Positions 1-5,101 of a stretch of DNA of 5,101 nucleotides are shown here, one piece after another. The stretch is from a virus (taxonomy: Duplodnaviria; Heunggongvirae; Uroviricota; Caudoviricetes). Location: IMG/VR virus record IMGVR_UViG_2609459833_000010, positions 1 to 5,101 of that record, one strand, 5' to 3'. The position numbers were made by a program, and so were the translations under genes. The notes beneath the pieces are model-generated. The model worked only from the letters and a program-made list of their open reading frames with translations. It was not told where the DNA came from and did no database searches. Numbering within the stretch: position 1 is the first letter of the stretch; each line of letters starts with the position of its first letter.

Positions 1-276
1 CAGGCTAACTGGCCGAATCTTGCCACGTTCTTCGCTTATCCAACGGACATCCGCAAAGTGATCTATACGACGAATGCCATCGAGTCGCTAAACAGCGTGA
101 TCCGCCATGCGATCAAAAAGCGTAAAGTGTTCCCGACAGACGACTCGGTGAAAAAAGTGGTGTGGCTGGCAATCCAGGCGGCTTCACAGAAATGGACGAT
201 GCCACTGCGGGACTGGCGTATGGCAATGAGCCGCTTTATTATCGAGTTCGGTGACCGCCTGGACGGCCACTTCTGA
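1..276 (+). CDS. IS256-family (Mutator-type) transposase, C-terminal fragment; the 5' end lies upstream of the window
   Basis: Frame 1 is open from base 1 to the stop at 274-276. The translation (QANWPNLATFFAYPTDIRKVIYTTNAIESLNSVIRHAIKKRKVFPTDDSVKK...KWTMPLRDWRMAMSRFIIEFGDRLDGHF) carries the C-terminal motifs typical of IS256-family transposases (YTTNxIESLN, KWTMP, F..RL). Recognised from memory, not searched. Confidence 0.8.
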   Translation, partial: QANWPNLATFFAYPTDIRKVIYTTNAIESLNSVIRHAIKKRKVFPTDDSVKKVVWLAIQAASQKWTMPLRDWRMAMSRFIIEFGDRLDGHF

Positions 277-290
277 GAAAAGGTATTTAC
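1..290 (+). mobile_element. Right-hand end of an IS256-family insertion sequence; the exact terminus is not determined
   Basis: Inferred from the transposase 3' end at 1-276. The terminal inverted repeat could not be located from sequence alone. The element must end within a few tens of bp of the stop and may overlap the 3' end of the convergent gene at 287-523. Confidence 0.45.
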
Positions 291-523
291 ACAGAATCCT
301 GAACAGGCTCTCCCCATTGTTTGTTCTTAAGTTCGATCTCCTCCTGGCAACTTGCACAAGTCCGACAACCCTGAACAGCCAGGCGTCTTCGCTCATCTAT
401 CGGATCGCCACACTCACAACAATGAGTTGCGGATACAGTCTGGTAGTTCAGACGACGCATTTTTATTGCTGTATTGCGCTGTAATTCTTCGATTTCTGAT
501 GCTGAATCAATGATGTCTGCCAT
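287..523 (-). CDS. TraR/DksA-family C4 zinc-finger protein (phage TraR-like, of the lambda Orf73 class)
   Basis: 78-aa ORF with an ATG start. It contains C-x2-C-x17-C-x2-C (CCEC...GDPIDERRRLAVQGCRT...CASC), the zinc-finger signature of TraR/DksA proteins, and its size matches F-plasmid TraR (73 aa). Confidence 0.8.
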   Translation of the reverse strand: MADIIDSASEIEELQRNTAIKMRRLNYQTVSATHCCECGDPIDERRRLAVQGCRTCASCQEEIELKNKQWGEPVQDSV

Positions 524-576
524 CTTTCATTAATCCCTGAATTGTTGGTTAATACGCTTGAGGGTAAATGCGAATA

Positions 577-600
577 ATAAAAAAGGAGCCTGTAGCTCCC
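577..600 (-). terminator. Weak candidate intrinsic terminator for the minus strand
   Basis: On the minus strand, a GGAGC / 5-nt loop / GCTCC hairpin (586-600) is followed by TTTTTTATT (577-585), about 20 nt after the stop of the 622-903 ORF. The stem is only 5 bp. Confidence 0.3.
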
Positions 601-621
601 TGATGATTTTGCTTTTCATGT

Positions 622-903
622 TCATCGTTCCTTAAAGACGCCGTTCAACATGCCGATCGCCAGGCTTAAATGAGTCGGTGTGAATCCCATCAGCGTTACC
701 GTTTCGCGGTGCTTCTTTAGTACGCTACGGCAAATGTCATCGACGTTTTTATCCGGAAACTGCTGTCTGGCTTTTTTGATTTCAGAATTAGCCTGACGGG
801 CAATGCTGCGAAGGGCGTTTTCTTGCTGAGGAGTCACTGAACAAGCCCCATGCCGGCAAGCATAAGCACACAGAATATGAAGCCCGCTGCCAGAAAAATG
901 CAT
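622..903 (-). CDS. Hypothetical small phage protein; the real start may be the internal GTG at 835-837, giving 71 aa
   Basis: 93-aa ORF from an ATG. The C-terminal 70 residues look protein-like (SEIKKARQQFPDKNVDDICRSVLKKHRETVTLMGF...), while the N-terminal 22 are Cys/His/Gly-rich and overlap another ORF. A GTG at 835-837 overlaps the stop of the 834-917 ORF. Confidence 0.45.
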   Translation of the reverse strand: MHFSGSGLHILCAYACRHGACSVTPQQENALRSIARQANSEIKKARQQFPDKNVDDICRSVLKKHRETVTLMGFTPTHLSLAIGMLNGVFKER

Positions 904-917
904 TCAGTGGTTGTCAT
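834..917 (-). CDS. Putative 27-aa hydrophobic single-helix peptide (MTTTECIFLAAGFIFCVLMLAGMGLVQ)
   Basis: Not in the supplied ORF track because it is short. Its ATG (915-917) overlaps the TGA stop of the upstream 914-1105 ORF as ATGA, suggesting translational coupling, and a purine-rich GAGAGAG lies 6 nt upstream. The product is almost entirely a transmembrane-like segment. Confidence 0.3.
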   Translation of the reverse strand: MTTTECIFLAAGFIFCVLMLAGMGLVQ

Positions 918-1105
918 ACCTGGTCTCTCTCATCTGCTTCTGCTTTCGCCACCATCATTTCCAGCTTTTGTGAAAGGGATGTGGCTAACGTATGAAATTC
1001 TTCGTCTGTTTCTACTGGTATTGGCACAAACCTGACTCTAATTTGAGCAAGGCTATGTGCCATCTCAATACTCGTTCTTAACTCAACAGGAGATGCTTTG
1101 TGCAT
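914..1105 (-). CDS. Small lambda early-left protein (orf60a/orf63 class), function unknown
   Basis: 63-aa ORF. It sits in the same position relative to exo as the small non-essential ORFs in phage lambda and overlaps the next ORF by 28 nt, as those do. Confidence 0.6.
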   Translation of the reverse strand: MHKASPVELRTSIEMAHSLAQIRVRFVPIPVETDEEFHTLATSLSQKLEMMVAKAEADERDQV

Positions 1106-1266
1106 ACCGCCTCCCGTTTATTATTTATCTTCTCAGCCAGCCGCTGTGCTTTCAGTGGATTTCTGATAACAGAAAGGCCGGGAAATACCCAGCCTCGCTT
1201 TGTAACGGAGTAGACGAAAATGATCGCGCCTACCCGGATATTATCGTGAGGATGCGTCATCGCCAT
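1078..1266 (-). CDS. Small phage protein immediately downstream of exo, function unknown
   Basis: 62-aa ORF ([62 protein letters not shown]). Its start overlaps the exo stop by 10 nt, so it belongs to the same leftward operon. Confidence 0.5.
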
Positions 1267-1937
1267 TGCTCCCCAAATACAAAACCAATTTCAGCCAGTG
1301 CCTCGTCCATTTTTTCGATGAACTCCGGCACCATCTCGTCAAAACTCGCCATGTACTTTTCATTCCGCTCAATCACGACATAATGCAGGCCTTCACGCTT
1401 CATGCGCGGGTCATAGTTGGCAAAGTACCAGGCATCTTTTCGCGTCACCCACATGCTGTACTGCACCTGGGCCATGTAAGCCGATTTTATTGCCTCGAAA
1501 CCACCGAGCCGGAATTTCATGAAATCCCGGGAGGTAAACGGGCATTTCAGTTCAAGGCCGTTGCCGTCACTGCATAAACCATCGGGAGAGCAGGCGGTGC
1601 GCATACTTTCGTCGCGATAGATGATCGGGGATTCAGTAACATTCACGCCGGAAGTGAATTCAAACAGGGTTCTGGCGTCGTTCTCGTACTGTTTTCCCCA
1701 GGCCAGCGCCTTAGCATTAACTTCCGGAGCCACACCGGTGCAAACCTCAGCCAGCAGGGTGTGGAAGTAGGACATTTTCATGTCAGGCCACTTCTTTCCT
1801 GAGCGGGGCTTTGCTATCACGTTGTGAACTTCTGAAGCGGTGATGACGCCGAGCCGTAATTTGTGCCATGCATCATCCCCCTGTTCGACAGCTCTCACGT
1901 CGATCCCGGTACGCTGCAGGATAATGTCCGGTGTCAT
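1257..1937 (-). CDS. exo: Lambda exonuclease (Red alpha), 5'-3' dsDNA exonuclease
   Basis: 226 aa, the length of lambda Exo. The sequence ([43 protein letters not shown]...) is recognised as essentially lambda Exo. Its start overlaps the bet stop by 4 nt, as in lambda. Confidence 0.96.
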
Positions 1938-2719
1938 GCTGCCTCCTTCTGCTCAGTGGCTTTCTGTTTCAGGAATCCAAGAGCTTTCACTGCTTCGGCC
2001 TGTGTCAGTTCTGACGATGCGCGAATGTCGCGGCGAAATATCTGGGAACAGAGCGGCAATAAGTCGTCATCCCATGTTTTATCCAGGGCGATCAGCAGAG
2101 TGTTAATCTCCTGCATGGTTTCATCGTTAACCGGAGTGATGTCGCGTTCCGGCTGACGTTCTGCAGTGTTAGCAGTATTTTCGACAATGCGCTCGGCTTC
2201 ATCCTTGTCATAGATACCAGCAAATCCGAAGGCCAGACGGGCACACTGAATCATGGCTTTATGCCGTAACATCCGTTTGGGATGCGACTGCCACGGTCCG
2301 GTGATTTCTCTGCCTTCGCGGGTTTTGAATGGTTCGCGGCGGCATTCATCCATCCACTCGGTAACGCAGATCGGATGATTACGGTCCTTGCGGTAAATCC
2401 GGCATGTACAGGATTCATTGTCCTGCTCAAAGTCCATGCCATCAAACTGCTGGTTTTCATTGATGATGCGGGACCAGCCATCAACGCCCACCACCGGAAC
2501 GATGCCGTTCTGCTTATCAGGGAAGGCGTAAATTTCTTTCGTCCACGGATTAAGGCCGTACTGGTTGGCGACGATCAACAATGCGATGAACTGCGCATCG
2601 CTGGCATCACCTTTAAATGCCGTCTGGCGAAGAGTGGTGATCAGTTCCTGTGGGTCGACAGAATCCATGCCGACACGTTCAGCCAGCTTCCCAGCCAGCG
2701 TTGCGAGTGCTGTACTCAT
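1934..2719 (-). CDS. bet: Lambda Beta (Red beta) single-strand annealing protein
   Basis: 261 aa, the length of lambda Bet. The sequence ([66 protein letters not shown]...) is recognised as essentially lambda Bet. A GAGG Shine-Dalgarno lies about 10 nt upstream. Confidence 0.96.
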
Positions 2720-2724
2720 CCGTT

Positions 2725-3021
2725 TTATACCTCTGAATCAATATCAACCTGATGGTGAGCAATGGTTTCAACCATGTACCGGATGTGTTCTGCCATGCGC
2801 TCCTGAAACTCAACATCGTCATCAAATGCACGGGTAATGGCTTTTTTGCTGGCCCCGTGGCGTTGCAAATGATCGATGCAGAGTGATTCAAACAGGTGCT
2901 GTGGAAGACCTTTTTCCATGTCGTCTGCCAGTTCTGCCTCTTTCTCTTCACGGGCAATCTGCTGGTAGTGACGCGCCCAGCTCTGAGCCTCAAGACGATC
3001 CTGAATGTAATAAGCGTTCAT
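2725..3021 (-). CDS. gam: Host-nuclease (RecBCD) inhibitor Gam, short form
   Basis: 98-aa ORF ([60 protein letters not shown]...[10 protein letters not shown]) recognised as lambda GamS. An AGGAG Shine-Dalgarno lies 7 nt upstream of the ATG. An in-frame stop at 3076-3078 with no start codon in between rules out the longer lambda-type form here. Confidence 0.94.
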
Positions 3022-3096
3022 GGCTGAACTCCTGAAAATGGCTGTGAAAATATCGCCCGCGAAATGCCAGGCTGATTAGGAAAACAGGAAAGGGGA

Positions 3097-3507
3097 TTAG
3101 TGATTCAGGCCGTTGCCTCGTCCGTCGAGAAAAACTTCCACGAGCAAATCACGGGTATAAGTGCGCTCGATGCCGCGATGCAGATATAGCCGTCCGCGTA
3201 AATTAGCTGATGCTGTCCAGGTACCATCTTTGTGTTTGACCAGCATTCCTGGCATGACCGCACCGCGATTAACGGTCTGCGTTCCGTAATGTTGATGAAC
3301 CATAAAAACTCCTGCCCGTAAGCTGGGCTGCTGAACATATAAAGACTTCTGCGCGTATTCAGGCGGTGGATGGCCGCCGGTTGTCATAACTAAGCCGCCT
3401 CGTTGAAGCGACTGAGGTATGAAATGTTGAGTTAATTTCAGCTGGTCACACCGACGTTCACGCGTCCGCTTCACCCCTCGCACTTCCCGGAGCCTGCTGA
3501 AATTCAA
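3097..3507 (-). CDS. Hypothetical Arg-rich protein or gene remnant; no ATG at the head of the ORF
   Basis: 136-codon open frame, and the plus strand here is closed in all frames. The frame opens right after a stop at 3517-3519 and its first start-like codon is TTG. The first ATG is codon 41, preceded by GAGG about 10 nt upstream, which would give 96 aa. No family recognised. Confidence 0.3.
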   Translation of the reverse strand: MNFSRLREVRGVKRTRERRCDQLKLTQHFIPQSLQRGGLVMTTGGHPPPEYAQKSLYVQQPSLRAGVFMVHQHYGTQTVNRGAVMPGMLVKHKDGTWTASANLRGRLYLHRGIERTYTRDLLVEVFLDGRGNGLNH

Positions 3508-3588
3508 GCTACGGATCTAAGCGGTCATCGCAACGGTGAATCAGGTGGTTGCCGTATCGTTGTGTTGTTGCGATATGATGATAATAGC

Positions 3589-3625
3589 TATTGCTATTGG
3601 TGATATCAATACTTATTGCTATTGG
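3589..3625. repeat. Two perfect copies of a 12-bp direct repeat, TATTGCTATTGG, 25 bp apart in AT-rich intergenic DNA
   Basis: Read directly: 3589-3600 and 3614-3625. Each copy is itself a GCTATT-type tandem, and both lie in the AT-rich spacer between the terminator at 3747-3774 and the ORF at 3097-3507. Confidence 0.5.
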
Positions 3626-3746
3626 CTGATGTGTTTTGATATTAAATGTTTGATAGCAAAAAGAATTAATTTTGTGACTTGCATCGCATAGCGATAACTG
3701 AAGCAGGGGCATGGTGGTTTTTTGAACGGTGTGTGATGAGGGGAGG

Positions 3747-3774
3747 CAAAAGAAAACCCGGCACGACGGCCGGG
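3747..3774 (-). terminator. Intrinsic (rho-independent) terminator downstream of the membrane-protein gene
   Basis: On the minus strand, a GC-rich hairpin CCCGGC-cgtcgt-GCCGGG (3757-3774) is followed by TTTTCTTTTG (3747-3756), starting 9 nt after the TGA stop at 3783-3785. Confidence 0.55.
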
Positions 3775-3782
3775 GAGGGGGG

Positions 3783-4289
3783 TCATTTTAATCTATCAAG
3801 GAGTGACTCTCTTTCCTTCTTCTCTGATTCTCTTCGGTTTAATAACGCTTTAAACTCTTGAAGCTCAACCATTATTTTATGAACGAATACACTGGTATAG
3901 AGAGAAATAAAGAGTAATCCACCTGAAATTTTTAAGACCCTGAAGAGTAGGGCTTGATCATTTGTGCTTGCTATTAACCCCAAGATTACAAACAAAGTTG
4001 AAAATACATAGAAAGCTAATAATAAAACCAATTTCAGTCTCTTGGATTTGACTATTGGCACTAATCGCCTAACCTCACTAGGGGTTAAAGACGAGTGGTC
4101 ATTGGCCTCATTTGCCTTAAAAATGGCTTGTATACAATATGATAATGGCAATTGCATGAGTCCAACCACAGCCCACGGAGCTGTTAGGACAACACCCGGT
4201 GTAATATAGCCCAATGCTGACTTGAACAAAAAGTAACCAGCAACATAGAAGACCAACATACCAATAAGGTGGATGATGTTCGATTTCAT
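3783..4289 (-). CDS. Predicted integral membrane protein (about 4 transmembrane helices, charged C-terminal tail), function unknown
   Basis: 168-aa ORF with an ATG start and a canonical AGGAGG Shine-Dalgarno 5 nt upstream. Hydrophobic stretches sit at about residues 5-22, 30-57, 85-107 and 112-136, followed by a Lys/Glu/Arg-rich tail (LQEFKALLNRRESEKKERESLLDRLK). The gene is AT-rich and starts 21 nt after the upstream gene's stop. Confidence 0.75.
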   Translation of the reverse strand: MKSNIIHLIGMLVFYVAGYFLFKSALGYITPGVVLTAPWAVVGLMQLPLSYCIQAIFKANEANDHSSLTPSEVRRLVPIVKSKRLKLVLLLAFYVFSTLFVILGLIASTNDQALLFRVLKISGGLLFISLYTSVFVHKIMVELQEFKALLNRRESEKKERESLLDRLK

Positions 4290-4310
4290 TATCGCCCTCC
4301 TTTTGGTAGG

Positions 4311-4781
4311 TTATTTTGCAACCAATTCTCCGGCATCAAGTTTTGAGAACAGCCACTTATGCATTTTTAAGAATAAATCATTTTCATCAATAATGCCATT
4401 GTTATGTTCAACGCTAATTTTTCCGGATAATTTTATCTCTTTTCCCGTTATTTCCCCACCGCCTTGAAGTTTGATGCTAATATCATCCTCATCTAGATGT
4501 CGTAGTGAGGTAGCAATACTGTCTATAACAGCTTGACCGCTATCATTTGTTTTTCTGAAGTATGTAATCTCGAGGCTTACTTGTAAATTGGCCTCATCTA
4601 ATGAATCTTTAATGTTTATATCATTTGCCCAGTTATCGCCAAAAAATGCTTTTAGTAGCGCACCTCCTTTCCCTATTGGGCGGTATTTTATTGTCTTCAC
4701 CGAACCATTTGAAAAGGAGGGTGTTTGGTTCTCTGAATTTTTAACTTCTGAAGTAATGGGTAATCTGATCTTACCCAGCAA
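4311..4781 (-). CDS. Hypothetical soluble protein, first gene of the two-gene cassette; 5' end apparently truncated by the IS3 insertion
   Basis: 156-codon frame ending in TAA at 4311-4313. The head of the frame (4766-4781) is IS3 inverted-repeat sequence and the first start-like codon is a TTG inside IS3. The native portion (4765 and below) has no ATG until near the C-terminus, and its only GTG (codon 28) has no Shine-Dalgarno. No family recognised. Confidence 0.55.
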   Translation of the reverse strand: MLGKIRLPITSEVKNSENQTPSFSNGSVKTIKYRPIGKGGALLKAFFGDNWANDINIKDSLDEANLQVSLEITYFRKTNDSGQAVIDSIATSLRHLDEDDISIKLQGGGEITGKEIKLSGKISVEHNNGIIDENDLFLKMHKWLFSKLDAGELVAK

Positions 4782-5101
4782 TAGTGGACACGCGGCTAAG
4801 TGAGTAAACTCTCAGTCAGAGGTGACTCACATGACAAAAACAGTATCAACCAGTAAAAAACCCCGTAAACAGCATTCGCCTGAATTTCGCAGTGAAGCCC
4901 TGAAGCTTGCTGAACGCATCGGTGTTACTGCCGCAGCCCGTGAACTCAGCCTGTATGAATCACAACTCTACAACTGGCGCAGTAAACAGCAAAATCAGCA
5001 GACGTCTTCTGAACGTGAACTGGAGATGTCTACCGAGATTGCACGTCTCAAACGCCAGCTGGCAGAACGGGATGAAGAGCTGGCTATCCTCCAAAAGGCC
5101 G
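4766..5101 (+). mobile_element. IS3 (IS3 family), left end and start of orfA; continues beyond the window
   Basis: The left inverted repeat begins at 4766 (TGATCTTACCCAGCAATAGTGGACACGCGGCTAAGTGAG...), followed by the orfA start at 4831. Recognised as the E. coli IS3 left end. Confidence 0.93.
4831..5101 (+). CDS. insE: IS3 OrfA (transposase N-terminal helix-turn-helix / leucine-zipper protein), 3' end outside the window
   Basis: Translation from the ATG at 4831 (MTKTVSTSKKPRKQHSPEFRSEALKLAERIGVTAAARELSLYESQLYNWRSKQQNQQTSSERELEMSTEIARLKRQLAERDEELAILQKA) is recognised as IS3 OrfA (InsE). It is absent from the ORF track only because no stop falls inside the window. Confidence 0.93.
   Translation, partial: MTKTVSTSKKPRKQHSPEFRSEALKLAERIGVTAAARELSLYESQLYNWRSKQQNQQTSSERELEMSTEIARLKRQLAERDEELAILQKA

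Follow-up and report, generated by a model that had tools for sequence, protein, structure and literature searches.

[quoted passage not shown] Secondary statements in the literature describe the isoforms as "presumably translated from two start sites", and the GamL open reading frame (ORF) still serves as 'full-length Gam' in experiments (PMC5218532, PMC11785009). The locus studied here raised the question of whether a gam gene closely similar to that of lambda can encode the long form at all, and of how far upstream of gam its similarity to lambda extends. The analysed DNA (the window) is 5,101 nt long and corresponds to positions 1–5,101 of IMG/VR virus record IMGVR_UViG_2609459833_000010. 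With high confidence, 3022–3100 was identified as the spacer between a KilR-type gene and a short-form-only gam in the exo-bet-gam module of a lambdoid prophage, with the break in homology to lambda at 3103/3104. The alignment, the reading frames, the exchange of modules and the population frequencies on which this reading draws are direct observations.

The gam gene and its genetic context

The following features were assigned in and downstream of gam.

2725–3021, minus strand: gam, 98 aa, predicted GamS-type inhibitor of host RecBCD (ORF and profile matches)
3029–3033, minus strand: Shine-Dalgarno sequence AGGAG, 7 nt 5' of the gam ATG (read off the sequence)
1934–2719, minus strand: bet, RecT-like annealase (ORF; 97% nucleotide identity to lambda; annotated as bet in relatives)
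1257–1937, minus strand: exo, lambda exonuclease (ORF; aligned with lambda exo; annotated as exonuclease in relatives)

The genes gam, bet and exo followed one another on the minus strand. The start codon of gam is the ATG at 3021–3019, where translation would begin, and the AGGAG upstream of it is identical in lambda, in the Salmonella relatives and in the Citrobacter relatives. The predicted protein matched Pfam PF06064 with 216.8 bits (cutoff 25), residues 1–98 falling on profile positions 1–98 of 98, and matched PHROG 259 with E = 1.2e-60 (1–98 of 98 covered). Residues 1–98 also matched PDB entries 5MBV (98 aa) and 2UUZ/2UV1 (99 aa) with E of about 2.5e-61; the solved Gam structures are those of the 98/99-aa form. 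The Gam profiles of both Pfam and PHROG have 98 positions, and lambda GamL aligns to both via residues 41–138. The window Gam and lambda GamS had 96 of 98 residues in common (98% identity, 2 differences). Judged by this identity and by PMC5218532, it would be an inhibitor of RecBCD.

Lambda NC_001416, positions 31000–35000, was used as the reference for blastn. A single alignment joined window 909–3103 to lambda 31000–33193 with 97.1% identity and one gap. Because of this alignment, the window is taken to represent the orf63-orf60a-exo-bet-gam block of a lambdoid prophage.

Related prophages matched the window only at 311–4765. The right end of an IS256-like element, IS1414, lies at 1–~313; it carries the C-terminal portion of the transposase (ORF 58–276, plus strand) and adjoins a prophage gene of the DksA/TraR zinc-finger type (287–523, minus strand). 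In related prophages, DUF4222, xis and int genes take the place of IS1414. The left inverted repeat and start of an IS3 element (TGATCTTACCCAGC...) occupy 4766–5101, upstream of gam in the same operon. This element removes the 5' part of a gene of about 340 aa in relatives (PHROG 3482) and leaves a C-terminal ORF of 156 aa at 4311–4781. Since IS3 interrupts the operon upstream at 4766, expression of gam in the host is uncertain, and transcription from the native early promoter may be absent.

Homology of the spacer to lambda

The features of the spacer and its upstream border were as follows.

3022–3096, minus strand: kil-gam intergenic spacer, 75 nt, homologous to the part of lambda encoding GamL residues ~16–40 (78/82 identity over 3022–3103)
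3035–3040, minus strand: polymorphic site CATTTT (TA-TTT in lambda), an extra T and a C/T change (pairwise alignments)
3055–3072, minus strand: putative terminator-like hairpin GCCUG-(8 nt)-CGGGC, 5 bp (consensus terminator match and RNAalifold)
3076–3078, minus strand: in-frame TAA closing the frame 19 codons 5' of the gam ATG (translation)
3097–3103, minus strand: TCACTAA, fragment of a His codon and stop at the homology boundary (alignment; blastn endpoint 3103)
3097–3303, minus strand: putative KilR-family cell-division inhibitor gene, 68 aa (PHROG 294, BLASTP)

The initial annotation proposed a sharp lambdoid mosaic joint upstream of gam, with similarity to lambda ending about 20 nt 5' of the ATG. 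The joint exists at another position. The 82 nt upstream of the ATG (3022–3103) were identical to lambda 33113–33193 at 78 of 82 positions (95.1%), and the gamS coding part showed 96.6% nucleotide identity. Identity stopped at 3103/3104, at a distance of 82 nt from the ATG. The next 100 nt showed 49.6% identity, level with the 47.7 ± 2.3 obtained from shuffles. Sensitive blastn of 3104–3800 against lambda and against the Rac kilR/KilS region gave chance matches only, and the matches to Stx phages stopped at the same window position, 3103. This moves the breakpoint from near 3040 to 3103/3104, a correction of about 63 nt. Similarity well beyond 3040 had been taken beforehand as a sign that the assumed N-terminus of the lambda long form was wrong; the similarity does extend that far, and the 138-aa long form is nonetheless real.

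Within the spacer, the differences from lambda were substitutions at minus-strand positions 3096, 3069 and 3040 and one extra T. The extra T is the only gap in the whole alignment. The window has TTTT at 3035–3038 where lambda has TTT, with the linked C/T change at 3040, and this difference in the length of the T-run sits immediately 5' of AGGAG. The amino-acid match to GamL was limited to its last ~5 residues, FRSSA, because the 1-nt length difference shifts the frame; the DNA beyond this point is still homologous. The loss of protein similarity near 3040 is due to a frameshift in homologous DNA and not to a recombination joint. Among relatives the length of the spacer differs by 1–2 nt, which fits non-coding DNA.

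Reading frame upstream of gam

Translation reproduced exactly the string of 18 residues that had been read upstream of gam, with TAA at 3076–3078 and no ATG, GTG or TTG in the 18 codons. The lambda long form is equally real: in the lambda annotation, gam (32816–33232) overlaps kil (33187–33330) by 46 nt and encodes 138 aa. A frame for GamL is open back to an ATG 40 codons upstream, and the frame in the window is closed by TAA at 19 codons. A stop within 19 codons and the absence of a start codon are not statistically unusual by themselves, and the closed frame is meaningful only by comparison with lambda.

In lambda, GamL starts at an ATG (33232) within kil, 39 nt past the homology boundary. 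Since the boundary precedes it, this ATG is absent from the window, and no similarity to lambda was found past 3103 at the nucleotide or protein level, so that a lambda-type kil is missing upstream of gam. Long Gam is therefore abolished by the frameshifted spacer with its in-frame TAA and, independently, by the replacement of lambda kil. As the initial annotation held, only the short form is available: the 98-aa GamS form is the only one that can be encoded, and standard initiation cannot yield a long Gam.

The difference between the two phages can be described by the following mechanism. The C/TTTT spacer puts the lambda GamL frame out of register, the TAA closing the frame 19 codons upstream, and Gam would be translated solely from ATG 3021 via AGGAG 3029–3033 as a 98-aa GamS-type inhibitor of RecBCD. 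The T/TTT spacer of lambda, 1 nt shorter, leaves the frame open to a chance ATG inside lambda kil and so gives the 138-aa GamL ORF.

The gene in the kil slot

The stop codon of lambda kil (33187–33189) aligned exactly with the stop of the 68-aa ORF of the window. No BLASTP alignment between this ORF and lambda Kil was obtained even at E ≤ 100. The ORF matched Rac KilR with 36% identity (BLASTP, E = 9e-13) and PHROG 294, 'Kil protein for bacterial septation inhibition', with E = 1.3e-37. Its score against NCBIfam NF008465, 'FtsZ inhibitor protein', was 63.1 bits, under the cutoff of 92. No match was found in the local Pfam copy; Pfam KilR family PF27398 is recorded for the Salmonella relatives. 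The identical gene is named 'phage encoded cell division inhibitor protein' in RefSeq. The kil slot appears to be filled by an unrelated functional analogue, named as a cell-division inhibitor by annotation.

Identity to lambda of 95–97% thus extends to 3103 and falls to background beyond it, the break falling on the upstream gene's stop codon. A break at the 3' end of the KilR-like gene, where kil is exchanged for an unrelated gene, is a textbook case of lambdoid mosaicism. The sequence TCACTAA is common to two unrelated E. coli genes, which places the module boundary just inside the upstream ORF. All four gam-adjacent inhibitor genes examined (the window KilR-like gene, lambda Kil, Salmonella Kil and Salmonella KilR) end in His-stop; Rac KilR, which is located away from gam, does not.

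Upstream of the KilR-like gene, about 480 nt (3304–3782) contained no credible ORF. This stretch is followed by a predicted membrane protein of 168 aa (3783–4289, PHROG 16807), and neither phage 4A7 nor the RefSeq prophages have any annotation in it. On its minus strand, a GC-rich terminator-like hairpin (3774–3757) and a promoter-like site (3609–3581) were observed. The stretch matched no Rfam family and did not resemble the KilS small RNA located upstream of kilR in Rac.

Frequency of the spacer alleles and of short Gam

An allele-neutral pattern downstream of the T-run was used to collect 120 IMG/VR contigs, and the 104 with enough flank were classified by spacer allele and upstream gene.

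C/T4 with KilR-type gene: 46 contigs (41 distinct)
T/T3 with lambda kil: 28 contigs (24 distinct)
C/T4 with lambda kil: 28 contigs (22 distinct)
T/T3 with KilR-type gene: 1 contig (1 distinct)
Other spacer allele with KilR-type gene: 1 contig (1 distinct)

The C/TTTT allele was present in 74 of the 104 contigs, and the 138-aa ORF occurred only in the class combining T3 with lambda kil. The equivalent of TAA 3076–3078 was found in 70 of the 79 classified T4 loci (70 of 80 including one with the upstream gene unclassified). The C/T change and the indel were completely linked in 116 loci; other spacer SNPs were found in all combinations. Lambda-kil and KilR-type genes each occurred with both spacer alleles. 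Such combinations of alleles and modules would be expected from reassortment of the modules through homologous recombination in the gam-side DNA that they share.

Complete E. coli genomes (5,426) were searched with allele-specific queries of 53–54 nt that had no 28-nt word common to the alleles. The counts depend on megablast seeding and are lower bounds: the T4 spacer was found at least 2,903 times in at least 2,593 genomes, and the T3 spacer at least 975 times in at least 903 genomes. The KilR-type junction was present in at least 1,507 places and the lambda-kil junction in at least 1,700. At least 1000 contigs carried the exact window Gam, compared with 136 for the exact lambda GamL. Among the best 120 clusters of Gam homologues, 93 had a length of 97–99 aa, and a 138-aa Gam occurred only at 96% or higher identity to lambda.

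Short-form gam with the TTTT spacer is the majority state in E. coli and is already annotated; the gene, its product, its neighbour and the mosaicism are known. No more than about a quarter of natural gam loci can encode the GamL ORF, which matters to anyone taking GamL as the native protein.

Rare kil-gam fusion ORFs of 171–213 aa, consisting of lambda Kil and GamL and matching Pfam Lambda_Kil and Gam, were found in public read assemblies; two of them also take in a further upstream ORF. These fusions may reflect genuine frameshift variants or faulty assembly.

Ancestral state of the spacer

The gam loci of Salmonella (72% protein identity) have Lambda_Kil or KilR upstream, a spacer of 80–90 nt and a 98-aa Gam, and those of Citrobacter resemble them. 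Beside the conserved ribosome-binding site, the outgroups read CCAAATTCAGGAG or CCAAATTTCAGGAG. These outgroups (Salmonella, Citrobacter and an E. coli lineage with a RecE-like gene ahead of gam) carry C at the polymorphic site, and their spacing is equal to or longer than that of the window, never the shorter form of lambda. This points weakly to the lambda T/TTT as the derived state, with the GamL ORF created when a non-coding spacer lost 1 nt; the polarity of the indel is read from a small number of outgroups, and their spacers can be aligned well only over the ~30 nt beside the ribosome-binding site.

We lean slightly towards the view that GamL is a young, lineage-restricted by-product, which arose from an ancestral non-coding spacer, variable in length by 1–2 nt and bearing the small conserved hairpin, by a 1-nt deletion and a C-to-T change together with a chance ATG in kil. 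If so, the window would represent the ancestral majority state, and about three quarters of E. coli gam loci would have no possible long form. Every divergent Gam homologue sampled would likewise be unable to make the long form. In the non-overlapping part of the GamL extension, 21 distinct ORFs had 5 synonymous and 3 non-synonymous sites, and GamS had 10 and 13, numbers too small to judge coding constraint.

In the RecE-preceded E. coli gam lineage (~80% protein identity), a RecE-like (Exonuc_VIII) gene of 660–690 aa lies upstream and overlaps the gam start by 4–23 nt. Lambda-type bet and exo still follow gam. These prophages would have two exonuclease genes flanking gam.

Alternative explanations

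A recombination joint within ~20 nt of the gam ATG, with all upstream DNA being non-lambda, would account for an in-frame protein that matches GamL only over FRSSA. The DNA itself argues otherwise, since the region up to 3103 retains 95% identity with three substitutions and a single 1-nt indel and background is reached only from 3103/3104, and a joint near 3040 is refuted by this alignment. The extra T could also reflect faulty sequencing, or a pseudogenising frameshift acquired recently by a prophage remnant whose ancestor encoded long Gam. Homopolymer runs are error-prone, and the position of the segment between two IS ends suggests a decaying prophage, but the same C/TTTT allele recurs in independent viral contigs (74 of 104) and in at least 2,903 places in complete E. 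coli genomes, and the C with longer spacing is common to the Salmonella and Citrobacter outgroups. Even without the frameshift there would be no start, lambda kil being absent, and two T3 loci with a KilR-type gene have no in-frame start. The sequencing-error and pseudogene readings were rejected on population frequency, and we assign them hardly any probability.

A longer Gam might still be made by a non-standard route, such as readthrough of the KilR-like stop, a non-canonical start (ATT) or frameshifting on the T-run. The KilR-like ORF is in the same frame as gam, the T-run just 5' of the ribosome-binding site looks slippery, and rare kil-gam fusion ORFs exist in public assemblies. Readthrough would nevertheless have to pass two TAA codons (3097–3099 and 3076–3078), no known recoding signal and no Rfam match were found in the window, and the spacer varies in length by 1–2 nt among relatives in the manner of non-coding DNA. 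Such a route is judged very unlikely. A short-form-only gam behind a non-coding spacer is the preferred reading.

The spacer hairpin

The hairpin at 3055–3072 was kept across E. coli, Citrobacter and Salmonella, and RNAalifold on seven spacers gave compensatory changes in 2 of its 5 pairs. Of the cells, 97% were paired, compared with 29–51% in slid controls, and 1 of 500 shuffles equalled the observed value. The match to a terminator was weak, and the single-sequence fold of the spacer was unremarkable (z = −1.4). Conservation seen in seven sequences is suggestive only; the hairpin may be a terminator or a processing site. An Rfam scan of the whole window gave no family at the gathering score. 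The counterpart of the hairpin in lambda would fall within the GamL extension. The tL2 terminator cluster of lambda is presumably placed in the spacer region, and the hairpin may correspond to lambda tL2c. A literature search for the coordinates of the lambda tL2 terminators yielded nothing usable.

Comparison with named relatives

The window resembles lambda in gam (96.6% at the nucleotide level, two residues apart in Gam), in the ribosome-binding site, in bet and exo downstream and in the 82 homologous nucleotides upstream. It differs from lambda in having no GamL ORF, a T-run one T longer, an in-frame TAA and a replaced kil.

The Rac prophage KilR, an FtsZ inhibitor, is a homologue of the upstream gene of the window (36% identity, PHROG 294). 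The two genes differ at the C-terminus and are not similar in nucleotide sequence, and nothing corresponding to the KilS small RNA turned up in the window.

The closest architecture was that of Escherichia phage 4A7 (Bievrevirus, NC_049946) and RefSeq E. coli prophages (e.g., NZ_CP019455), which have the same architecture with 97–99% identity. The 68-aa KilR-like gene, the 75-nt spacer, the 98-aa Gam, Bet and Exo follow in the same order as in the window, and the gene-free stretch of ~480 nt upstream of the KilR-like gene is common to the window, 4A7 and the RefSeq prophages. Unlike the 4A7 type, the segment in the window is bounded by the IS1414 end (1–~313) and the IS3 end (from 4766).

Phages of the Stx2 phage 86 / BP-4795 type have the C/TTTT spacer and a 98-aa Gam as in the window, but retain a lambda-type kil and cIII upstream, where the window has the KilR-type gene. 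The annotation of Stx2 phage 86 lists, beside the 98-aa gam, a 'gam alternate' of 50 aa, the relic of the GamL start left by the frameshift.
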